Below are positions 1 to 35,786 of a stretch of 42,047 nucleotides of DNA, piece by piece. The position numbers were made by a program, and so were the translations under genes. The stretch comes from a virus. Lineage: Duplodnaviria; Heunggongvirae; Uroviricota; Caudoviricetes. The DNA lies in IMG/VR virus record IMGVR_UViG_2660238591_000003. The stretch is one strand, 5' to 3'. The notes under the pieces were generated by a model that ran no database searches, had not been told where the DNA came from, and worked only from the letters and a program-made list of their open reading frames with translations. Every line of letters starts with the position of its first letter. The first letter of the stretch is position 1.

Positions 1-549
1 TCAGCTAGCTGGAAACTTTTTATACAGAGTTGAGAGCCCTACTCCATACGTTTTTGATACGCTTTGTCGTGATTCACCGGTTGCCATCCGCTCCCCCATT
101 TCCCGCCATTGCTCATCCGTGAACTTAGGCCTGCGACCACCAACTCGCCCTTTTGCCCTGGCTACGGCCAGCCCTGCTAAGGTACGTTCGCTATTAAGAT
201 CAGATTCATATTGTGCTGCGGAAAGGATGTTACGAAAGTTATAGCGGCCGCTGGCTGTTTTGAGATCCACGCCATCGGTAATACTGCGGAAGTTGATACC
301 CTTTTCCTGTAACTGCTGGAACATCAACAGCGCATGCAGAACGTTGCGGCCTATCCTGTCCAGCTTCCAGACCACCAGTTCATCCCCCGGCTGCATAGTG
401 GCGATCAGCCGTTTTAGAACCGGCCGATTCGATTTCCTCCCGCTGGCATGCTCTTCAAAAATTTTCTCACAACCCGCTGACTTGAGCGCCGTTAGTTGCA
501 ATTCAGTGTCCTGGTGGTTTGTTGATACTCGGGCATAACCGTAAATCAT
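1..549 (-). CDS. DNA invertase, small serine recombinase (Hin/Gin/Pin/Cin family)
   Basis: ATG at 547-549 (the track ORF 1..708 carries a non-ATG upstream extension). 182 aa beginning MIYGYARVSTNHQDTELQ with the catalytic-Ser motif, GRRPKF and a C-terminal HTH ending STLYKK. Lies beside inverted crossover sites. Confidence 0.9.
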   Translation of the reverse strand: MIYGYARVSTNHQDTELQLTALKSAGCEKIFEEHASGRKSNRPVLKRLIATMQPGDELVVWKLDRIGRNVLHALLMFQQLQEKGINFRSITDGVDLKTASGRYNFRNILSAAQYESDLNSERTLAGLAVARAKGRVGGRRPKFTDEQWREMGERMATGESRQSVSKTYGVGLSTLYKKFPAS

Positions 550-601
550 GGGATTTCTCCTGTTATGAAAACAGGAGAAACGGCGAAGCATCACCAGATT
601 T

Positions 602-5106: not shown

Positions 5107-5760
5107 TTACCCTCCCAGTGGTTTCGTATTGCTGCCGCCGACTTCCACGCCGCCATGCGTATGCTTATCAACCATGGAGCCATCCACCAGCTGCAGGCGG
5201 CCGTCAGGCAGAATTTTCAGACCGTTAAGGTTGAAGCCTCCCGGCGCGGTTCCCGTTATCGCTCCGGATGAAGGGTTAAGGCTCAGTTTTGTTCCACCGT
5301 CGTCACTGCGCAGTTCAACCGCACTGGTACTGATGCTGCTGATTTTCTGCGCCTGCGACTGCGGACCCACAATGGCAAACGCATCACTCAGGTCATGCTG
5401 GCGCGGGTCAACCGGTTCCTGCACCCCGCCGCTCTGCCACCAGAAGTCGATGCAGCGATCGGAGAAGACCAGGAGGCACTCGTCACCGGCCTTTACCGGG
5501 AAGGTTAACGTGCAGCCACCGCCGCGGGGGAACACCACTGGAACGTCTGGCAAAATCGGTATCTCCTCAGAAACCAGAGCGCCATCGTCGCTGAGCCGCT
5601 GACCGTAGATGGCTGGCTGCACGGTGCATGTCACTGTTTCAGGGTCAAAGGACTGGATGATCCCCGGCAAAGCCACGCGCAGGCTGCCGAAAATGGCGTG
5701 GCGGTGCGCCTCAAGAGTCTGCGATTCGTTGCCGTCCTGCGCGCGGGCTGATACTGGCAT
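5107..5760 (-). CDS. baseplate assembly/spike protein (gpV / Mu gp45-like)
   Basis: Start placed at MPVSARAQ (ATG 5758-5760) with GGAGAAAGCT upstream. The track ORF start at 5808 would run through a terminator hairpin. Confidence 0.7.
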   Translation of the reverse strand: MPVSARAQDGNESQTLEAHRHAIFGSLRVALPGIIQSFDPETVTCTVQPAIYGQRLSDDGALVSEEIPILPDVPVVFPRGGGCTLTFPVKAGDECLLVFSDRCIDFWWQSGGVQEPVDPRQHDLSDAFAIVGPQSQAQKISSISTSAVELRSDDGGTKLSLNPSSGAITGTAPGGFNLNGLKILPDGRLQLVDGSMVDKHTHGGVEVGGSNTKPLGG

Positions 5761-5772
5761 AGCTTTCTCCAG

Positions 5773-5800
5773 GTAATAAAAAACCCGCCGAGGCGGGTTA
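5773..5800 (-). terminator. intrinsic terminator (- strand)
   Basis: Stem AACCCGCC/GGCGGGTT (5782-5799) followed on the - strand by TTTTTATT. Confidence 0.6.
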
Positions 5801-5978
5801 CTGATCAAATGTCAGGATTTGAGGGTGAGTTAATGCGTGCTATTTATCTTCATTGCAGCTCTTAATATAGGTTTTGCTTAGAACCACGGTAACGTCGTGA
5901 TTTGTAGCAAGATACAGGCTGCTAAGGAAAAGCCGGTAGGCAATTTTTAGCTTCTCTCGATAGGGGCCTGAAACCTTT

Positions 5979-6329
5979 ATGCCAAAATCAGAAACAACCA
6001 TAAAATTTACTCCAGCTATTTGGAAAGAGTTACTTCCTGTAATCCAGGATAACATACCCGCTAATGACTATGTAGTAAGTAAAAGAGTCAGAACGGGTGA
6101 TTCTCCTGGCGCTATTGGCACAATTCTCGAAATATCTATTACCGTTATCACATCATCACCAGCTTGTATCGCCATTGCATCGATAGCGAGAAAATGGTTA
6201 CAGACCAGATCATCAAAAAAAATAACGGTAACCACTGAAAAAGGTACGATCGAAATACAAAATCTGACATCAAAGGAGCTTTCAGAAGTACTGGAGCAGT
6301 ACAAAATTATAAGTTTTAAAGACGAGTAA
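5979..6329 (+). CDS. hypothetical membrane protein, AT-rich moron (opposite strand to the late operon)
   Basis: 116 aa. Hydrophobic helix AIGTILEISITVITSSPACIAIASIA. Stop is followed by a terminator hairpin. AT-rich by eye. Confidence 0.55.
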   Translation: MPKSETTIKFTPAIWKELLPVIQDNIPANDYVVSKRVRTGDSPGAIGTILEISITVITSSPACIAIASIARKWLQTRSSKKITVTTEKGTIEIQNLTSKELSEVLEQYKIISFKDE

Positions 6330-6333
6330 CTGA

Positions 6334-6360
6334 GCGCCGGTAGTTCCGGCGCCTTTATTA
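6334..6360 (+). terminator. intrinsic terminator (+ strand)
   Basis: Stem GCGCCGG/CCGGCGC followed by CTTTATTAAATT. Confidence 0.6.
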
Positions 6361-6362
6361 AA

Positions 6363-6719
6363 TTACTTAGCCTTCACGCAGTCGTAAGTTCCAAACACTC
6401 GAGGTTCATTCATGTTCATTCTGATGGCCTCGGCATTGAGTATCCCTCTCCCATTGCGTTTTATATAATCAAGACCATAGCGCTGCCCAGAATTCTCATT
6501 CATGACAATCCATTGCATTTTAATATTGTCATAATCTCCCTCTTTTTTGAGGAATGTCACCTTCTGACTATCAGGCTTTGCTCCGTTTATCCTCGGATAT
6601 CCGTCGTTGCTTGATGAGGTTGAGAAAGTAAAGGGACCACACTTCATATAAGCGGTGTTTGCCGCTGTAGAAGAAAAACTGACGAATGCTAAAGAAACCA
6701 AAAAAAGTATTTTTTTCAT
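6363..6719 (-). CDS. hypothetical secreted protein, moron inside the baseplate operon
   Basis: 118 aa. N-terminal signal peptide MKKILFLVSLAFVSFSSTAA. ATG overlaps the stop of the upstream hub gene (ATGA). AT-rich. Confidence 0.65.
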   Translation of the reverse strand: MKKILFLVSLAFVSFSSTAANTAYMKCGPFTFSTSSSNDGYPRINGAKPDSQKVTFLKKEGDYDNIKMQWIVMNENSGQRYGLDYIKRNGRGILNAEAIRMNMNEPRVFGTYDCVKAK

Positions 6720-7786
6720 TGTGGAGCCGTTCGCTGTAGGGCCGTATTCGATTGTAAATCACGCGCCCCTCTGGCCATACACATGAGATCCATATACCAC
6801 GGATTCCCTCTCGTATCGCCGGTGTAGCTGATTGACTGAACTATGTAAACGCCATCAGTTGCCACACTGGCGGGCTGCGCAAGCGTCGCGCTGCCTGTAC
6901 TAAGATTACCATTATCATTTGCCTCAGTAATCCTTGCCTGTGATCTTTGGATCTCATCGTTCGGTAATTGCGAGCGATACACCGAGTCCTGGTTCAACTG
7001 AATAAGCCCGTTAACCCGAATGTTTGGATTAATGAGACAGCGCACATTAACGCCTGCCCCCATGGTTTGCTGAGGCATACCGACCAGGCCAGTTTTGGTG
7101 TTAAGCACGATCGCTTCATGGAGATATTTATTCTCAGGCACCATTTGCAGCTGGCCGTCGACAAATTGCCAGTTAGCCTCGCACTGCGCCGCTAGGTTGC
7201 TCATGTAGTCGCGCGTTGCGCCGAAGAAGACGCGACCGCGTGGCATCACCCTGTCAGGGAACTGCCCGGTGATGCCCTGGGTGATGCCGTAAGGCGAAAA
7301 GTCCTTCATCAGAAGTGTATGCACGTCGGCAAGCTTATATCCTGCCGCCAGGCTGCCGGACGATACGGCTTCGTTGAACGCCTTATGACCATCTACCGAC
7401 TGAATTAGCGTAAAAATATCGGTAGGATTATCGCGCCCGGTTATCGTAAAACGAATCTCCCCATCAAAAATGACTCCGTAATTTTGCCCGCGCGTCTGGC
7501 CGGTTTGCTCAGATGAAATCTCGGTAACCTGCCCAACCTCGCTTTCAGTAACCGTCGGCGCCAGGCCGTTATAACCGGCTATGATGGTAATGCGAGAAAA
7601 CTCATCCCCCGTAATCCGGGTGATTGTGTCACGCTTGAGGTTGTAAATTTTAAGCGTCGCCACACGTGGCCACATCGAGTTAAACCAGTCGATTGCGAAG
7701 GTAACTTTAAAGTCCGACAGGGATATGCCATTCCCCTTGTCGTTCAGAAGCCGCAGTTCAAAATGGCGATTCCAGTTAATAGTCAT
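6716..7786 (-). CDS. phage tail protein, baseplate hub-like
   Basis: 356 aa track ORF within the tail operon. Confidence 0.6.
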   Translation of the reverse strand: MTINWNRHFELRLLNDKGNGISLSDFKVTFAIDWFNSMWPRVATLKIYNLKRDTITRITGDEFSRITIIAGYNGLAPTVTESEVGQVTEISSEQTGQTRGQNYGVIFDGEIRFTITGRDNPTDIFTLIQSVDGHKAFNEAVSSGSLAAGYKLADVHTLLMKDFSPYGITQGITGQFPDRVMPRGRVFFGATRDYMSNLAAQCEANWQFVDGQLQMVPENKYLHEAIVLNTKTGLVGMPQQTMGAGVNVRCLINPNIRVNGLIQLNQDSVYRSQLPNDEIQRSQARITEANDNGNLSTGSATLAQPASVATDGVYIVQSISYTGDTRGNPWYMDLMCMARGARDLQSNTALQRTAPQ

Positions 7787-28460: not shown

Positions 28461-28823
28461 GAATTAGCAGTGTTATATTAAGCGGCAATTTCTTTCTGCC
28501 GGCACAATCCCGAGAGATTCGCCCTCTGTATCGCATCATCAATGAGCACCTGTATGACCATGAGGCAAAGCGTTATCCAACTTGCATTCATCTTTTTCAA
28601 TCAGCAAAGGAGTGGTTAGTGCTGTGAGTGGGCTTTGTTCACTTCATGGTAGATAAATCAGCTATGGATAAGTGATAAGAGGTGAAATCAATCCGAATTA
28701 ACAACCTGAAGCACATTAATCGGAACACAGATATTAAAATCCTAAAGTCTAGTAACAAATAGCCGATATGAGATATTGCTTATCAGTTTAAAAATCATCT
28801 ATTGAAAAAATGGGGGGGAGGCG

Positions 28824-29387
28824 TTGAAGCGAGTAGAGCGCGATTTTATCTGTCTGTTTAATTGTGTGTGGTATCAAGATTTCCCTGTGTTCAAAGGTGA
28901 ATATATCAACCGTTCCAACTGGACCATTCATGTTGGCCTGGTCATGCGCGAGTGTGCAAAGTTAATGGGCGCAAGAACATTTTTTGAACAAGGCGGGCGT
29001 ACCGATGCGGTCCTACAATATCCAGACAATCAAATTTTAACCTATGTTGAGTGGGAGTATAATCAGGCAGACAGAGATAGCGTTAACGAGTTAGACAAAC
29101 TGCTTGAAAAAAACGACAAGTGCTATTTCTCCACATTCATCTCATATTGTCAGCATGAAAACATCAATATTGTTATTGAAAAAGCAAGTAGAATATGGAG
29201 TGAAGCAAGCAGGCCTTTGATTTTTTTTCTTATCACCTATGAGCCTCAAACGAAAAAACGCCGCCATTTTTTAGAACTCAGAACTTATTTTTTCTCAAAC
29301 GGCAAAAGAAAACTAGTTCGCAAACAACCTGCGCTTCCATGGGATATTGAGCAACGAAAATACAATGTCGAAGAAGATGCAGGATAG
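28824..29387 (+). CDS. hypothetical protein in an AT-rich island (candidate accessory/defence gene)
   Basis: 187 aa. TTG start preceded by GGGGGGAGG. Opposite strand to all flanking phage early genes. No motif I can assign. Confidence 0.55.
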   Translation: MKRVERDFICLFNCVWYQDFPVFKGEYINRSNWTIHVGLVMRECAKLMGARTFFEQGGRTDAVLQYPDNQILTYVEWEYNQADRDSVNELDKLLEKNDKCYFSTFISYCQHENINIVIEKASRIWSEASRPLIFFLITYEPQTKKRRHFLELRTYFFSNGKRKLVRKQPALPWDIEQRKYNVEEDAG

Positions 29388-29426
29388 AAGAGACATAAGG
29401 TTTTCACGACAGTCTCGTTCCGAGCC

Positions 29427-29808
29427 CTAACTAAAATATTCTGTTCGGAGCAACCAAATAGCTCTGGCTTTGCTGTGACCATGTTCGCGGTACCAACGCC
29501 TCTCTAGGTCCGCTTCTCGCTCATGGTGGACCAAAATCAAATCTAAAATGACGTGGCTAAGCGGGAGTACATAGTGAATGACAGGATGCTCCGGGCAGCA
29601 CCATACTAATTCAGTTCCCGTCAGAGGTAGGCGTTGCTTCATGATGGGATGAGCGCTCCCTCCAGACAATCCATGCGACAGCCGCCTCCCATGATATATA
29701 TCCATTACCGCCATTTTTCGCTCTGCGGAGATTAACTGCATCACCAAACCTTTCAATGATGAATTTTTCAAATTCTATGCGTTTTTCTTCGTCGATTGTT
29801 GAATCCAT
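29427..29808 (-). pseudogene. possible decayed gene (two overlapping frames)
   Basis: Track ORFs 29611..29808 and 29427..29771 overlap in different frames in AT-rich DNA. Confidence 0.3.
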
Positions 29809-30087
29809 ACCTTCCCCAGAAGAGTCCTACGAATCGCTCTTATTGCATAAAAAATAGCATATACAATAGAGAGTGAAAAACCGACGTAGCGGGTTAACTT
29901 TATGTTACTCATGAGTCTTGTCTCGCTGCGACTTAAAAGCGGAACATTCTCGCGCAAGTTGCGTTGCTAAAGCTACGGGGTTGAATGGCTCTCCATGCCC
30001 ATTTAAGAAGGCATGCGGTGTGTAGTTGAACGTTATTTAAAACACAGATAGAATCAAGAAAAATCCTAAATAAATGGAATATTGTTT

Positions 30088-30468
30088 ATGGCTAAGAAAA
30101 TCGCATTACTGGGCTTTTCTGCTCTTTTTGTTGCAAGTGTTGCTTTTGCTGAAACGACAAGTAACTGGGTTGAGGTTACTACAGCTGATGATGGCATTTT
30201 TTCAGCAAAAAAAGGCACATTTAGAAATGTAAAAGGTGATTCATCTGCCTTGTTCATGTATCAAACAAAAAATAAAAAAGTAGAGTACTACAAAGTTAGT
30301 ATTAAAGATGCCGACTGTGATAGTGGATATGGGGAGATAAGATTCTTCTATATGGATGGGAAATTAGCTTTCAAAGGTGATTATGTTGCTGATGGGAACA
30401 GTGTTGGCGCAGGTATTGGTGATTTTATGTGTGGAGTCAGAATTGGACTTAACACACAAAAAAGTTAA
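30088..30468 (+). CDS. hypothetical secreted protein (moron)
   Basis: 126 aa. Signal peptide MAKKIALLGFSALFVASVAFA/ET; two Cys in the mature part. AT-rich. Confidence 0.6.
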   Translation: MAKKIALLGFSALFVASVAFAETTSNWVEVTTADDGIFSAKKGTFRNVKGDSSALFMYQTKNKKVEYYKVSIKDADCDSGYGEIRFFYMDGKLAFKGDYVADGNSVGAGIGDFMCGVRIGLNTQKS

Positions 30469-30882
30469 ATGAGGGGCATTTGTTAAAAAACAATAGCCCC
30501 ACATTAGATCAATATTGGCTCCGGCATTTCTGGATAAAAGCTTCTATGCTACGGCGCTCATAGCGAACAATCTTAGCGCTGAACTTTACACGGGGCCAAT
30601 GTAGACCGGTGTCGGTGTTCTGTATTCCATTTACATAATGTTTTTTGCGTAATTCCCAGCTTCTGGCATACCTCGCCCGGAGTGAGGAGATCATCAGGTT
30701 GCTCAGTCATGTTATGCCTCGCTGTTATCTGGGGTGATGATTAGCAGCTTCCAGATGGCTGAGACATACATAGCCTGATGTTTCGCATCGACTAGGGCAT
30801 TATGCATGTCACCTTCAAACGGCATGTCCCGAGTTCTCCCTTTTCGCCGCTTTCGCGTCGCATATTCTCCAAACGGTATTTA

Positions 30883-31440
30883 TCAATCATTACTGTTATC
30901 CTCGCAGTAGTAGTGCCGTCCCTCTGGGTCAGTAGATACATGTCCGCAGATATCGCATTCAATTCCAGGAAGCACCGATTCTGACTGCGCTTTGATATGC
31001 AGTCGCGGTTCACCGTCTTTCGGCTCTGGCCACTGGCGGTTTTTGTTAACCGCCAGCTTTTCTACCATCGCCAGGGTAATCTGCTTATCACTGATACCGG
31101 CACGACGTTGCGCATCCCATAACAGGAATTGCATGTCAGCCCATTCGCTCATCTCGTCTGGTTCCGCAGCAGCCTCGATAGCTTCTTTGGAAAGGTGCTT
31201 CAGCGGACCAACTGGACCGACATCGCCGAATGTTTCATCTGACCATGCTGCATGTTCACAGCGTACCTGCTCACGGGCTATCGACTCCAGAACCCCATCA
31301 ATCACCTTCACTGCATCAGCCATTGCGTAGCCGAGATTACCGCCGTCGCTTTGTGCTGCTGCTTTGCTGAGTATTTCGCGTATCTGGTGCAAGCGATCAA
31401 GTGATACAGGACCGTGCGCCGGGTGGTTGTTAGTTGTCAT
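30883..31440 (-). CDS. hypothetical early protein (MazG-like/DUF550-like N-terminus with C-terminal Cys motif)
   Basis: 185 aa; RBS AGGTAGAGGA before the ATG. Ends CDICGH...CEDN. Confidence 0.45.
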   Translation of the reverse strand: MTTNNHPAHGPVSLDRLHQIREILSKAAAQSDGGNLGYAMADAVKVIDGVLESIAREQVRCEHAAWSDETFGDVGPVGPLKHLSKEAIEAAAEPDEMSEWADMQFLLWDAQRRAGISDKQITLAMVEKLAVNKNRQWPEPKDGEPRLHIKAQSESVLPGIECDICGHVSTDPEGRHYYCEDNSND

Positions 31441-31443
31441 GGG

Positions 31444-31644
31444 TTAGTCCTCTACCTTGTTTCCGCAATGCGGGCAGTAATTGAACTTATGGGCGAATCC
31501 AGGATGCGGAACGGCAAAGCGTTTGGTTTTCTCGTTCCAGTCAGCAATTACGATTTCAAAATTTACGACCGCATTAGCCCAGTCACTGGAAAGAACTGGC
31601 TGCGACCCAATCAGGCCGACTATACAGCGATTACATTTTTCCAC
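31444..31644 (-). CDS. small zinc-ribbon protein
   Basis: 66 aa with CNRC ... CPHC. Confidence 0.5.
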   Translation of the reverse strand: MEKCNRCIVGLIGSQPVLSSDWANAVVNFEIVIADWNEKTKRFAVPHPGFAHKFNYCPHCGNKVED

Positions 31645-31648
31645 TGAC

Positions 31649-31843
31649 TCACACCCCCTTCACGCCAATGCCAGCAGTAAATCGCGACGGTGACCAATCG
31701 CAATATGTGTTCGACTCCGTGTGTCCAAAAATTGCTTTACAACGATGGATATGGTGGCAATTACCACATGTTATGCCAGCCGGTAATCGCATCTTGTCGG
31801 GATCGGCTGGGTCATAATTCAACGCCAGTTTTTCGGTTGTCAT
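31649..31843 (-). CDS. small Cys-rich protein
   Basis: 64 aa with CGNCHHIHRC. Confidence 0.45.
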   Translation of the reverse strand: MTTEKLALNYDPADPDKMRLPAGITCGNCHHIHRCKAIFGHTESNTYCDWSPSRFTAGIGVKGV

Positions 31844-32178
31844 GCTGGCATCCTCCCCACGATATCTATAACCCGACGCATAACCGCACTTCCCCGAAAA
31901 TCTGCTGGTAACTCAATCAGAGGCTTACTCGAACCGTATGAGAATCGTTGGAGATCGAAATCAATTACAGCCTTTGGGTCCCTGAACAAATCTAGACGAC
32001 CGTAACGAATGAGTTCGCCGCGTTCGGCTGCTACGCGGAAATACTTCTCAGCAGTCTGACGATGCAGCGACAACATCTGTGATGCCTCGCTAACGGTTAA
32101 GCGTCCACGGATTTTCACCTCTTCGATGATCACCCGGATAAGTGCCGCCTGCTCTTCTGGTGTATTTGGTCTTGGCAT
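31840..32178 (-). CDS. hypothetical HTH-containing protein downstream of O
   Basis: 112 aa with a possible HTH (LTVSEASQMLSLHRQTAEKYF). Overlaps the O stop. Confidence 0.5.
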   Translation of the reverse strand: MPRPNTPEEQAALIRVIIEEVKIRGRLTVSEASQMLSLHRQTAEKYFRVAAERGELIRYGRLDLFRDPKAVIDFDLQRFSYGSSKPLIELPADFRGSAVMRRVIDIVGRMPA

Positions 32179-32180
32179 GC

Positions 32181-33092
32181 TTACCCCCTGAATCCGGGTG
32201 GGATTGTTTTGTCTGGCTCAGAAATGCGGTTCACATCCCTGCCCGTTTTGCGAGCGTTGAGAGCGAACTTCGGTTTAAACAGTCCCTGGTACCCGTTGGC
32301 GATACTGGTGTTGATCACATCAACGGGGTCATGCCCAGCGTCCAGGCAAGCCTTGAGCAACTTGAATGCTTTGGTGACCGTCATTTCGGTCTTGATGGCT
32401 TTGCCAGACTGTTGGCGGTAGGCCACCCACTCACTCCAGGACACAGAATCAAGCCACTCAGGAACGGGAATCGTCAGCGGGTCAAACTTACCCTTCCCCT
32501 TTGGGGGATTAGAGGGGGTTAGATCTGTATTTATATTTGTATTTGGAAGAATGTCTTTGGTGTTCCCTGTTTTCAGGGATACCTCTCCCTGTTTTTGGGG
32601 ATGGTTATCCCCGTTTTCAGGGATGATTGAAGGGGTAAAATTGCTATCCCTGAATTCAGGGATGGTAATAACCCATGTGACAACTTCAGCAGCAGGAAAC
32701 ACCGCTGGACACTTCATGCAATTTGGCTTGGTATACGCCCATTTATCCAGGCTGGTATTAATCCCTATGTATCTGGTTTGCCCAATGCGGCGCAGGATGA
32801 TGATGTTCCGATAGGCAAGGCTCAACACGGCTTCAGAGACGTGTTTCACCTTCAGCGTCGTTTTATCTGCAATGAGGCTATTGGCGATGCGGTCAGAACT
32901 CTTAGACCAGCCATAGGTCAGACGAACGATAGCATTCAGCACCCGGAACTCGCGCCCGGATAGTTCGACGATACACAGGGCATCCTGAATCTGGTTGGCC
33001 AGGCGCAAATAGCCTTTCTCCAGTTCAGCCATGCTGCTCTCCTGTTTCCCCTGCTGTGTGGGGAATTTGAATATTTCAGCGGTATTTGACAT
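32181..33092 (-). CDS. O: replication initiation protein O (lambda O family)
   Basis: Start at MSNTAEIF with GGAG 7 nt upstream. N-terminal LANQIQDALCIVELSGREFRVLNAIVRLTYGW. The gene contains the ori iterons. Confidence 0.8.
   Translation of the reverse strand: MSNTAEIFKFPTQQGKQESSMAELEKGYLRLANQIQDALCIVELSGREFRVLNAIVRLTYGWSKSSDRIANSLIADKTTLKVKHVSEAVLSLAYRNIIILRRIGQTRYIGINTSLDKWAYTKPNCMKCPAVFPAAEVVTWVITIPEFRDSNFTPSIIPENGDNHPQKQGEVSLKTGNTKDILPNTNINTDLTPSNPPKGKGKFDPLTIPVPEWLDSVSWSEWVAYRQQSGKAIKTEMTVTKAFKLLKACLDAGHDPVDVINTSIANGYQGLFKPKFALNARKTGRDVNRISEPDKTIPPGFRG
32522..32663. promoter_or_regulatory. lambda-type origin of replication (four iterons plus an AT-rich tract) inside O
   Basis: Four palindromic 16-18 bp iterons: TCCCTGTTTTCAGGGA (32564), TCCCTGTTTTTGGGGA (32586), ATCCCCGTTTTCAGGGAT (32607), ATCCCTGAATTCAGGGAT (32646). 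Adjacent AT-rich tract GATCTGTATTTATATTTGTATTTGG (32522-32546). Confidence 0.7.
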
Positions 33093-33176
33093 ACTGTTCT
33101 CCGCAATTACGCACAGTTTTTGCACCTGAAAGCCGTTGGTGTTCGAGCACCGCGGCTTTCGCCATTTCTGAGCCCG

Positions 33177-33734
33177 TCATAGCGCACCACCCAGCATCGT
33201 TGTAACCATCGCCATAATGGGCGCCACAGAATCAGGTCCGTCCAGGTAGAGCTTGGCTACGATGCTCTCGCTGATTTCCTTCATCCGTTCGTGTCTGGGG
33301 GCTTTGAGGACGACAGCCTGTATCGCCTCAGCGTCTTCTTTCACCGACCTGGCGACACGAACCGCAAAGCAGTCGTGCTTAATCACGCGATCCCGGTACG
33401 CCAGCGGCAGAACCGAAATTATTACCGGCGCCAGCTGCTCGACGTTCGCCCGGTAGGCCGGTGATTTCTCGTGGTTGTCCAGCCAGCGAAACAGCTTCAC
33501 GTTCCACACATCGGCGCTGCCGGTCATGTCAATGCTGTCAAGCTCGGCCTGTTCGGCAGCCTCTTTAATCGCCAGAGCGACCGCCACGCGGCCCTCTGCC
33601 GCCGCCCAGGCGCGGACGGCAGAACAGATAGCCCGGTGATCGACCGGCTGGCCTTCAGCCTCACTGTGTTGATACTGGAATTTCAGGTGCTCTGATGGCG
33701 CTCTGTTATTCTGTTGAAAAGAAAGTGTTTGCAT
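33177..33734 (-). CDS. YdaT-like protein (cII position)
   Basis: 185 aa directly downstream of the cro-like gene. Segment WNVKLFRWLDNHEKSPAYRANVEQLAPVIISVLPLAYRDR resembles Rac YdaT as recalled. Confidence 0.5.
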   Translation of the reverse strand: MQTLSFQQNNRAPSEHLKFQYQHSEAEGQPVDHRAICSAVRAWAAAEGRVAVALAIKEAAEQAELDSIDMTGSADVWNVKLFRWLDNHEKSPAYRANVEQLAPVIISVLPLAYRDRVIKHDCFAVRVARSVKEDAEAIQAVVLKAPRHERMKEISESIVAKLYLDGPDSVAPIMAMVTTMLGGAL

Positions 33735-33745
33735 TGTCAGTGCTC

Positions 33746-33964
33746 CTACTTTGGTAATCCGTCAGTGGGATTTGGATAGAGATCAGGGCGCAGCTCGTGG
33801 GGGGTTACGCCTGTCATTTTGAAAATCGGGAAGATATAGCTTGGCGGGACGATCCCTTGGTCACGATTCTTCCAATGACTTACAGACATACTCGTCACAC
33901 CAAGCGCGATGCTGAGCTTTCTGGCAGAGCCAGCGGCTTTAATTGCTTTATCGAGTGCGGACAT
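33746..33964 (-). CDS. Cro/YdaS-like HTH regulator
   Basis: 72 aa with HTH (ARKLSIALGVTSMSVSHWKN). Divergent from the repressor gene; RBS AGGAGAAG. Confidence 0.7.
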   Translation of the reverse strand: MSALDKAIKAAGSARKLSIALGVTSMSVSHWKNRDQGIVPPSYIFPIFKMTGVTPHELRPDLYPNPTDGLPK

Positions 33965-34066
33965 GTGCTTCTCCTGCTTATTGATAGCAGAAGTAAACCA
34001 CAGATTTATACTTCATGCAAACTTTGGATTTATTGCGTGCATAAACCAAATATTTACAATGACCAT
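33965..34066. promoter_or_regulatory. immunity-region operator/promoter (OR-like), divergent promoters
   Basis: Palindromes CTGCTtattgatAGCAG (33974-33990) and TTTGGATTTAT...ATAAACCAAA (34023-34050). A TACAAT -10-like element sits 7 nt before the repressor ATG, which would give a leaderless mRNA. - strand promoter TTGCAT-17-TTTACT for the cro-like gene. Confidence 0.55.
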
Positions 34067-34456
34067 ATGAGAAAAGAAGAACCCAACCTCGTTCTGGTGG
34101 AGCGCCTTACTGAGATCACTGATCGCGGCGTTACCAAAGCAGACATGGCAAGAATAGCTGGAGTCACCCCTCAGGCCGTAAACGGCTGGTTCAAAAAAGG
34201 CGTGATTAGTAAGAAATCGGCACTGGCCATAGCCGACGCTGTTGGTATTTCTGTCGCCTGGCTACTCGGTGAAGACGTTGGGGAGAAAGACGGTCTCAAA
34301 CCGGACGAACAGCGTTTGCTCGAGCTCTACCGCCAGTTACCGGAAGAAGAGCAGCAGAACATGCTCCGCATTTTTGCGCTTCGCCTGAAAGAGTTAGATG
34401 AGCTGTACGAGAAGTACATGAAGGGTCGGATTCGATCGCAAGGTGAGCAAACCTAA
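34067..34456 (+). CDS. phage repressor (cI/RacR-like, HTH only, no S24 peptidase domain)
   Basis: 129 aa with HTH (VTKADMARIAGVTPQAVNGWFKKG). No autocleavage domain present. The track ORF's upstream extension is discounted. Confidence 0.75.
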   Translation: MRKEEPNLVLVERLTEITDRGVTKADMARIAGVTPQAVNGWFKKGVISKKSALAIADAVGISVAWLLGEDVGEKDGLKPDEQRLLELYRQLPEEEQQNMLRIFALRLKELDELYEKYMKGRIRSQGEQT

Positions 34457-34520
34457 ACCAGTAGTATCTAATTCCATGTAATAAAAATATTTCAAGATTT
34501 AATATCTTCTGGAGGATTCG

Positions 34521-34802
34521 GTGTCTAAAGAAACAACCGTCGAACTTATGCATCTTAATGATGTAATCGAAGCGAAAAATTTCATCGAGACCAATGCTGA
34601 CGGTGTCGTAACAATCGGCACACAAAATGCCGGTTACGAAGTTTACAATTTTGTGTTCCTGAATAGCAGCCCGATCATCGGTACGGATAATGCGGATATA
34701 GTCGTCAAGGGCATGCAGCGAACCAAAGTTGTGTCTGTGACTTTAAGCAAACAAAAGGCTTATGATTTTTATCAATCCTTAAAAAGTATGTTTGAGGAAT
34801 AA
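34521..34802 (+). CDS. hypothetical protein A of a repressor-linked cassette
   Basis: 93 aa. Same strand and likely same transcript as the repressor. AT-rich. Confidence 0.6.
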   Translation: MSKETTVELMHLNDVIEAKNFIETNADGVVTIGTQNAGYEVYNFVFLNSSPIIGTDNADIVVKGMQRTKVVSVTLSKQKAYDFYQSLKSMFEE

Positions 34803-34805
34803 TAA

Positions 34806-35330
34806 TTGATGGATGCGGCTCAATCATCTCTTGGTGAAGGGAAGTTATTGATTGCATATTCAGACCATAGCGGAGCTACAGTAGGCTTAGAGTTTTCATC
34901 AGTAGCTTCGAGCCAAGCAACCTTCCTTATGGGTGCTTGTAGTTTTGCCGCTTCGGATAAACAAAAACGGATTGTCACATCAGTTGCTATGGATGATACT
35001 GAAATCATTCATACGTCAACTGAAGATGGAGGTGACGACATGGAAAAGAGATTGGCTATTCTTGAGGTTGAAGTTGCCCACATCAAGAAAGATGTTGCCG
35101 AGATAAAAAACACAGTTTCAAAAGTTGATACGACAGTGAATTCACTGGACAAAAATATGGCTGTAGTTTTGGAGAGGCTGTCTAGTATCAAAGAGTCTGT
35201 AGACAAAAAGCCCTCATCAGACACAGTGGACAAGAAAATCTCTGATGCTAAATTGGCGATTCTCTTAGGTGTCCCTGCGATTATCGCCATTGGTACAGGG
35301 CTGTACAAAGCTTTTATGCACTTCTTTTAG
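34806..35330 (+). CDS. hypothetical protein B: coiled-coil protein with a single C-terminal transmembrane helix
   Basis: 174 aa. Start 4-7 nt after the stop of A. Heptad-like LAILEVEVAHIKKDVAEIKNTVSKVDTTVNSL and C-terminal TM LAILLGVPAIIAIGTGLY (reminiscent of XhlA-type proteins). Followed by a strong terminator. Confidence 0.6.
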   Translation: MMDAAQSSLGEGKLLIAYSDHSGATVGLEFSSVASSQATFLMGACSFAASDKQKRIVTSVAMDDTEIIHTSTEDGGDDMEKRLAILEVEVAHIKKDVAEIKNTVSKVDTTVNSLDKNMAVVLERLSSIKESVDKKPSSDTVDKKISDAKLAILLGVPAIIAIGTGLYKAFMHFF

Positions 35331-35402
35331 TCAGATTTGGTCAATACGCCTGAGTTATAAGGCTCTCAGCTACTAACTCTGTCGCCTTCCCCGAACCTTC
35401 TC

Positions 35403-35431
35403 ATCCCGACCACGCGTCGGGATTTTTTTTG
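35403..35431 (+). terminator. intrinsic terminator ending the repressor-cassette transcript
   Basis: Stem ATCCCGAC/GTCGGGAT, loop CACGC, then TTTTTTTT. Confidence 0.75.
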
Positions 35432-35504
35432 CCTGCGATTCTGCAGACGTGTCACAAAACCCAGCCACATAAACCTCAGATTTACAATTAACACTAACCT
35501 TAAG

Positions 35505-35533
35505 TTGACACATATATAAACCAGTGATTTAAT
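35505..35533 (+). promoter_or_regulatory. sigma70-like promoter (PL-like) for the early recombination/excision operon
   Basis: TTGACA, 17-nt spacer, TTTAAT. The nearby ATTTACAAT motif is shared with the OR region. Confidence 0.5.
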
Positions 35534-35786
35534 CTAACTCACCAAGACGCACCACGAACCACCCAGGCATGGAGCCCACGAAGTAGCCGTCCGGGGCATA
35601 CGAAAACCGGAATGAGGTGGTGATATTAACGCGCAGTAGGTTTGAAACGTTCCGCCAGCCTGGCGACAAGGGCAAACACAGAAGTGAGCTTCGCGGTGGT
35701 GAATTGCAGAGTTAAAACGCTCAACTGTGAAGATCAGCGTCACGGCACCACCAGCGAAGTTCACTCAGCAATAGTGGAGAACATCA

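Follow-up and report, generated by a model that had tools for sequence, protein, structure and literature searches.

The 42,047-nucleotide viral stretch analysed here (IMG/VR record IMGVR_UViG_2660238591_000003, henceforth the window) carries, between the baseplate hub and the membrane-puncturing spike genes of a contractile-tail module, a small cassette in which a + strand gene for a homologue, by sequence, of the EACC1 protoxin family overlaps head-to-head with a - strand gene for a 53-residue protein, designated small53. The cassette belongs to a phage-borne clade that lacks the caspase of canonical EACC1 systems and keeps the overlapping 53-residue partner down to approximately 31-37% identity. 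The same slot holds a gene for a 118-residue protein, sec118, with a signal-like N-terminus. In the reading that we prefer, and to which as a whole we give roughly an even chance, the slot combines the conserved sec118 gene with a terminator-bounded, AT-rich two-gene moron (EACC1-family protoxin and small53) that would be expressed in the lysogen and silenced by antisense read-through of late transcription.

The EACC1 family was defined computationally (Kaur et al., 2020, PMC7159879), and its members were recently described as autoinhibited monomers that an adjacent caspase-like protease cuts at Asp49 (in KrEACC1), the C-terminal fragment then oligomerising into a membrane pore, with EACC1-KrAvs12 of Ktedonobacter racemifer as one example (Evans et al., 10.1101/2025.11.14.688446). 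Residues 37-106 of the + strand gene product matched the PF19953 (EACC1) profile over positions 26-104 of 107 with 29.1 bits, above the gathering threshold of 23.6 (E 1.1e-6), and an identical RefSeq protein is named EACC1 by the Prokaryotic Genome Annotation Pipeline. When 1.84 billion representative proteins were searched exhaustively with a profile, only 24 clusters came up at E < 1e-3; PF19953 was matched by 16 of the 24 aligned relatives (best E 3.9e-9). By these sequence comparisons the product is an EACC1 homologue, and the suspicion of a toxin-like gene, raised in a preliminary description of this DNA made from its letters alone, gained substance. One of the most distant relatives recovered in this way (locus L039; L numbers denote the loci compared) has a Peptidase_C14 gene after the EACC1 gene, which is the canonical EACC1-caspase pair, and the family therefore connects to the canonical systems.

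An AlphaFold2 (AF2) model of the protein placed strands (E) and helices (H) at E5-10, H12-25, E31-38, E48-57, H61-77, E82-86, E89-93, H98-107 and E110-115, corresponding to a β1-α1-β2 unit (5-38), an exposed loop (39-47), a third strand with a hydrophobic helix (48-77), a β-hairpin, a helix and a last strand. The model thus shows the N-terminal α+β extension, the conserved hydrophobic helix with small residues and the C-terminal α+β extension of the EACC1 architecture, and as a model it matches the autoinhibited monomer (10.1101/2025.11.14.688446). The exposed loop, where the local confidence measure (pLDDT) is low, carries the dipeptide Asp41-Ser42; the close family has it without exception, and most of the 24 relatives have an Asp at that column. 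The conserved Asp suggests that proteolysis still matters, Asp41 being the candidate cleavage site between an inhibitory N-domain and the C-fragment. The strongest constraint falls on the hydrophobic core SSPACIAIASI, invariant in the close family, with a ratio of non-synonymous to synonymous substitution rates (dN/dS) of 0.10, and the N-domain and loop (0.21-0.25) evolve approximately twice as fast. No positive selection was detected on the gene, dN/dS staying below 0.3 everywhere. The broad EACC1 alignment was too diverged for a pattern scan.

Peptidase C14 or another caspase was neither annotated nor detected anywhere in the window, nor beside the gene in related loci. The caspase gene of the two-gene system is missing from the 3' side, where the neighbour is the convergent sec118 gene, the exception among the relatives being the distant L039.

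The conserved partner of the EACC1-like gene lies on its 5' side instead. Among relatives, the 180 bp from the - strand terminator to the + strand ATG are conserved above the flanking genes, and this segment contains small53. In comparisons of diverged copies, substitutions had affected 28 of 35 synonymous and 12 of 124 non-synonymous sites; since dN/dS is 0.06-0.15 with dS saturated, indicating strong purifying selection, small53 does encode a protein and is more than regulatory sequence. The codon-substitution pattern likewise ruled out that the segment is only a promoter or 5' untranslated region (UTR), and Rfam gave nothing relevant for a known RNA in it. Fourteen homologue clusters of small53 were found, and its RefSeq orthologue, WP_016243572.1, is annotated in other strains. 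A β-α-β pattern and alike N-termini raised the idea that small53 is a duplicated EACC1 N-domain, which was rejected (hhalign probability 0.6%); the resemblance of the N-termini is due to the complementary overlap of the two genes. As to annotation, small53 is uncalled in the strain that matches the window, the intact 116-residue gene is uncalled in several RefSeq E. coli genomes (L002, L003 and others; locus coordinates 6204-6554), and each RefSeq record misses one member of the pair, so that the present data correct these records.

The first 23 nucleotides of small53 are the reverse complement of the first 23 nucleotides of the EACC1-like gene. Every locus of the main clade has an overlap of exactly 23 nucleotides, including L036 and L037, where EACC1 identity has fallen to 37-41%, and two more distant loci have one of 20 nucleotides; across EACC1 codons 1-8 synonymous divergence is halved. 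In a survey of RefSeq genomes, IMG/VR contigs and other public assemblies, both genes were intact in approximately 31 distinct contigs. In four further contigs small53 was intact and EACC1 lost, by truncation at 45 residues (L004), by a frameshift (L022) or by absence (L061 and L062), and the reverse case, an intact EACC1 gene without small53, was not found among the surveyed contigs, which are a small sample for this purpose. This asymmetry fits an antitoxin-like role for small53. In L061 and L062 (2192-3162) the lone small53, 62% identical, stands by the spike gene, and a gene for a 241-residue lipoprotein replaces both sec118 and EACC1.

The pair recurs in three contexts, namely the hub-spike slot, the vicinity of a holin/endolysin cassette (L038 and L063) and another myovirus tail operon (L064), and the identical cassettes of L019, L020 and L021 lie among differing alleles of hub, sec118 and spike, which marks the pair as an autonomous, mosaic unit of two genes. 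As in toxin-antitoxin (TA) loci, two small adjacent genes co-occur strictly and move jointly, and on the small sample above they also decay asymmetrically. In L064 (2979-5443) the distant EACC1-like/small53-like pair is part of an accessory island that extends from a Sie-like gene (phrog_8545, E 7.5e-5) to an Ant-type anti-repressor. The cassette is rare, occurring in 12 of 5,426 complete E. coli genomes; among accessible strains, E. coli G3/10 (L003) carries it, at approximately 0.55 kb.

Both genes are followed by intrinsic terminators. The + strand hairpin folds with -15.8 kcal/mol (z = -3.3 against shuffled sequences) and its stem shows compensatory change across loci, GCGCCGG/CCGGCGC in some and GTGCCGG/CCGGCAC in others; read on the - strand, this hairpin has no U-tract. 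The - strand hairpin (z = -3.4 against shuffled sequences) is kept in all aligned loci, and both hairpins hold their positions across diverged loci. A consensus terminator scan by itself did not exceed chance (2 sites against 2.6 expected in shuffles). Just upstream of the small53 terminator, on the same strand, a short palindrome CTGAT-N5-6-ATCAG (5800-5816), preserved in all aligned loci, folds into another small hairpin and may serve as an operator or as an element of the 3' UTR. With respect to promoters, a semi-conserved -10-like hexamer (TATCCT, TATAAT or GATAAT) is found approximately 45 nucleotides upstream of the small53 ATG in diverged loci; in the window it belongs to a weak σ70 candidate that a stricter scan missed. 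The G+C content over 5850-6750 is 0.39-0.42, against 0.50-0.62 in the flanks. In the manner of a moron, then, the cassette is an accessory unit of deviant composition with its own terminators between conserved late genes. The translational coupling of sec118 to the hub gene, both terminators and the low G+C that the preliminary description had pointed out were all recovered at their positions, and its view of the + strand gene as cargo of the late operon was borne out by a gene that is terminator-bounded, AT-rich and present in some relatives only.

From these features we infer toxicity, an antitoxin role, antisense silencing and expression in the lysogen, which together would give the following scheme. 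The EACC1-like protein would be made as an autoinhibited monomer and, once its N-terminal domain is removed or displaced, the C-terminal part with the hydrophobic helix and β-strands would form membrane pores, as for canonical EACC1. Because the canonical caspase is lacking, control may have passed to small53, acting as a protein (antitoxin or gate), by way of its mRNA, or in both forms; as the ribosome-binding region of each gene lies in the coding sequence of the other, any transcript of small53 is necessarily complementary to the region where EACC1 translation begins, and the converse also holds. In the lysogen, where the module may serve as an abortive-infection or addiction device, a transcript from a local promoter would end at the small53 terminator. 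In the late phase, Q-antiterminated transcription coming from the hub and sec118 genes would run antisense through the EACC1-like gene, since the + strand hairpin has no U-tract in this direction, express small53 and pass its terminator into the spike gene, so that the toxin would be silenced during the lytic growth of its own prophage. A gene for a Q antiterminator is present upstream in the same prophage. Activation without a caspase could follow either from loss of small53 control or from cleavage of the Asp41 loop by a protease of the host or of an invading phage.

Several observations weigh against this scheme. The AF2 model of the EACC1-like protein is of moderate confidence (pLDDT 72.5), and no protease partner for the conserved Asp41 could be identified in the window. 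No convincing conserved σ70 promoter was found upstream of the EACC1 ATG and the Shine-Dalgarno sequence is poor, so that expression in the lysogen is uncertain; such weak signals are also compatible with a tight, low expression of a toxin. For small53, no match was obtained in Pfam, PHROGs, NCBIfam, PADLOC or PDB sequences, nor any detectable homology to an antitoxin, a regulator or a known fold, and its persistence after loss of EACC1 is equally compatible with an independent function. Furthermore, tblastn with EACC1 found the cassette in none of the 50,697 isolated phage genomes and nowhere in the plasmid collection, and blastn of the region against isolated phages gave no match; its contribution to phage biology is therefore unsampled. 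NCBIfam and PADLOC likewise gave no match for the EACC1-like protein or sec118.

The conservation of the loop could also be read differently, with the exposed Asp41 loop as bait for a protease of a superinfecting phage or of the host stress response, the pore aborting the infection and small53 setting the expression level only. The invariance of Asp-Ser in the phage-borne clade and the retention of the site across the wider family, though no cognate caspase is encoded, would be expected under this explanation, as would the exposure and low model confidence of the loop and the faster evolution of N-domain and loop (0.21-0.25) relative to the core (0.10); canonical EACC1 needs cleavage for its activation (10.1101/2025.11.14.688446). 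The absence of positive selection, with dN/dS below 0.3 throughout, argues against a bait, the conserved Asp could be structural, and no candidate protease was identified in the window. We know of no Asp-specific maturation protease in phages, and on the whole regard this explanation as unlikely.

Rated lower still is a benefit to the phage itself rather than host defence, in which the EACC1-like protein would be a membrane effector for auxiliary or back-up lysis, for depolarisation or for lysis timing. The EACC1 family forms pores, the distant L038 pair is placed directly beside a holin/endolysin cassette, and a stay in one tail-module slot long enough for identity to fall to 37% suggests a lasting gain for the phage. 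Yet in nearly all loci the gene runs against the late operon, even in L038 it points the other way from the lysis genes, and it has its own terminator; the prophage already possesses a complete holin, endolysin and Rz1-like spanin set, and isolated phages with the same tail module do without EACC1, all of which makes such a role improbable.

A shade less probable again is that the cassette is a decayed or neutral passenger, an orphan remnant of a caspase system without current function whose terminators merely insulate the late operon. The missing caspase, the lack of a clear promoter, the weak Shine-Dalgarno sequence and the disruption of EACC1 in L004 and L022 would agree with decay, but both genes are under purifying selection across saturated synonymous divergence, the exact 23-nucleotide overlap is kept to 37% identity and both open reading frames are intact in the approximately 31 contigs mentioned above. 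Finally, that sec118 and the EACC1-like protein are the functional pair, as periplasmic immunity protein and membrane toxin, is very improbable and largely refuted by the distribution data, for although the genes, both AT-rich, neighbour each other in convergent orientation with a common terminator region, many relatives that have a sec118 homologue lack EACC1 (L023 among them), identical cassettes adjoin sec118 alleles 33% or 48% identical to that of the window or an undetectably diverged one, and the L038 and L064 pairs have no sec118 neighbour.

Features of the hub-spike slot in the window, with the evidence for each
Feature	Position	Strand	Evidence and remarks
EACC1-like gene, 116 aa	5979..6329	+	Pfam PF19953; AF2 model; alignments; dN/dS 0.10-0.25
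small53, 53-aa partner gene	5840..6001	-	ATG at 6001, stop 5840-5842; GGAG 8 nt upstream of ATG
Head-to-head start overlap, 23 nt	5979..6001	.	ribosome-binding region of each gene within the coding sequence of the other
Intrinsic terminator of EACC1-like gene	6334..6352	+	GCGCCGG/CCGGCGC stem, then CTTTATT
Intrinsic terminator after small53	5776..5799	-	7-bp GC-rich stem (5799-5782) and T6; approximately 15 nt before the spike ribosome-binding site
Candidate σ70 promoter for small53, weak	6046..6074	-	TACATA-17-TATCCT inside EACC1 codons 23-32
sec118, 118 aa	6363..6719	-	phrog_3443 E 3e-43; N-terminal hydrophobic signal-like segment
Baseplate hub gene, upstream anchor of the slot	6716..7786	-	phrog_196 E 3.8e-83; weak Pfam E217_GP41 match
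Membrane-puncturing spike gene, downstream anchor of the slot	5107..5760	-	Pfam PF18352 N-terminal domain E 1.4e-43; weak Apex motif; RefSeq annotation

The sec118 gene, whose ATG (6719-6717) overlaps the hub TGA (6718-6716) as ATGA, indicating translational coupling, had been taken in the preliminary description as part of the insert and as the partner of the membrane-protein gene. Neither assignment held. In nearly all relatives sampled, a member of its family (phrog_3443) comes right after the hub gene, and identical cassettes are found with different sec118 alleles; the true partner, small53, with its strict co-occurrence and head-to-head overlap, had been overlooked. The comparison with relatives lacking the insert, which the preliminary description had proposed, found sec118 kept where the cassette is missing, as in the isolated phages SEN34, Mulock, YP3, ST405-OXA48phi1.2 and vB_EcoM-683R1, all with sec118 after the hub gene. 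As evidence against its own reading it had named both proteins being conserved virion components in all relatives of this tail module, about half of which came true: the secreted protein is conserved across the module, the EACC1-like gene is not, and a virion role of sec118 gained no support.

The sec118 family comprises 46 clusters in Escherichia, Klebsiella, Salmonella, Serratia, Pantoea and Erwinia, and all homologues have an N-terminal hydrophobic leader and an invariant Cys27/Cys114 pair. The AF2 model (pLDDT 87) is all-β and sec118 models as a disulfide-closed β-barrel, for which no informative match was found. In L009 (6389-7279) the sec118 domain forms the C-terminal part of a 296-residue predicted lipoprotein with an LLSGC lipobox, a fusion that supports an envelope location of the family. 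Leaders, Cys pair and lipoprotein fusion together point to export, and owing to the export signal the likely place of action of sec118 is the periplasm and not the virion, even though its synteny within the structural module is conserved as for a virion protein; no proteomic data on it were found. The gene is replaced in L004 and in L061/L062. Within this lineage of tail modules, sec118 is thus a conserved and probably exported accessory. Superinfection exclusion is exerted at the periplasm or envelope by T4 Spackle and T5 Llp, whose genes are close to those of the tail (PMC9586334), and sec118 resembles them as a small signal-peptide-bearing phage protein encoded beside tail-tip genes, with a lipoprotein-fused variant in L009. 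The idea that sec118 is an MliC/PliC- or Spackle-like inhibitor of lysozyme or transglycosylase was dropped, a PDB sequence-profile search having given chance nanobody matches only and the presence of sec118 not tracking that of an SLT domain in the tape-measure protein.

The window represents a lambdoid E. coli prophage that matches NZ_CP062811.1 with 100% identity across the cassette region and adjoins yciI/tonB. Its - strand encodes a Q-type antitermination protein, a holin/lysozyme/Rz1-like lysis cassette, head genes and the contractile-tail module, which comprises a DUF3383-family protein (tail sheath by annotation of relatives), a Dit-like protein, a Pam3-type plug, hub, spike and baseplate J. 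A hub-protein search of the genome contigs returned a single locus. The cargo position lies between the sec118-family gene and the spike gene and is occupied by unrelated genes, on either strand, in relatives: other genes fill the slot in L023, Mulock, SEN34, YP3, ST405-OXA48phi1.2 and vB_EcoM-683R1. In L023 (Escherichia sp. ESNIH1, 5474-6627) two co-oriented genes for proteins of 249 and 134 residues, without Pfam match, follow the sec118 homologue. The 134-residue protein has an R-x4-H motif reminiscent of HEPN, an identity that was rejected as it had no Pfam support. Some Klebsiella copies of the slot (L029/L030, 3377-3907) contain one gene more, for a KilA-N domain protein, which separates small53 from the spike gene.

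Elsewhere in the window, positions 28500-35540 (YdaS/YdaT-like genes, an O-like replication protein, DUF977 and a dATP/dGTP pyrophosphohydrolase) are unrelated to the counterpart in NZ_CP062811.1 and the remaining prophage is approximately 98% identical to it; the immunity/replication region has therefore undergone a mosaic module swap. Within positions 52-2618, a 1.96-kb tail-fibre and assembly segment lies between 27-nucleotide inverted repeats (609-635 and 2592-2618). The gene beside it (52..600, - strand), annotated only as 'recombinase family protein', probably encodes an invertase of the Hin/Gin type. In the otherwise near-identical RefSeq prophage the segment is flipped, and it looks like an invertible host-range switch.

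When compared with EACC1-caspase systems, the cassette shares a protein of approximately 116-125 residues with PF19953, an N-terminal α+β domain of the autoinhibitory type, a linker Asp, a hydrophobic helix rich in small residues and C-terminal β-strands. It differs in having no 3' caspase or sensor gene but a divergent 53-residue gene with overlapping starts, and in its residence in late operons of enterobacterial prophages, the canonical systems being found on chromosomes, chiefly those of actinobacteria and other multicellular bacteria. Lambdoid late operons reportedly (Juhala/Hendrix 2000; Cumby 2012) carry morons such as HK97 gp15, lambda lom/bor and cor. Like these, the cassette is an AT-rich accessory unit of patchy presence between conserved tail genes, with an intrinsic terminator that a Q-modified polymerase would pass; unlike them, it is a bidirectional two-gene unit with overlapping starts, encodes a pore-forming protoxin homologue rather than envelope or exclusion cargo, and has no identified promoter for the + strand gene. 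Type I/II TA loci with 5'-overlapping antisense partners include symE/symR, hok/sok and ralR/ralA. They would have in common with the cassette a small membrane-active toxin-like gene, an antisense transcript over the initiation region and a partner that outlasts the toxin, but the antisense partner is here protein-coding and under purifying selection, and neither gene is homologous to known TA families. Bacterial gasdermin-protease systems are built on a latent pore-former that an inhibitory segment keeps inactive until cleavage frees it (cited in 10.1101/2025.11.14.688446); the cassette may share the principle of a latent pore-former with them, in an unrelated fold and family and with no adjacent protease.

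The role of EACC1 as a protease-licensed, pore-forming death effector is known from the November 2025 preprint only, and there from caspase-linked defence systems only; the EACC1 literature consulted (two papers of the Aravind group and that preprint) does not mention prophage-borne or caspase-less forms. What appears to be new in the present clade is thus family membership, by sequence and predicted architecture, combined with the replacement of the caspase by a new partner. This raises the questions of how a protoxin is controlled without a protease of its own, whether prophages use it for abortive infection or addiction, and whether the conserved cleavage loop is a sensor of foreign proteases, and it identifies a hotspot for cargo in this widespread tail module, between the spike gene and the gene of the sec118 family. 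The boldest form of the proposal, a caspase-independent EACC1 branch in enterobacterial prophages that is gated either by a head-to-head 53-residue protein and antisense-RNA partner or by an invading-phage protease at Asp41, is one to which we assign a low probability. If true, however, gating by small53 would constitute a new hybrid type of toxin-antitoxin control, and cleavage by a phage protease would make EACC1 a bacterial 'protease tripwire', analogous to the sensing of viral proteases by mammalian NLRP1 and CARD8.

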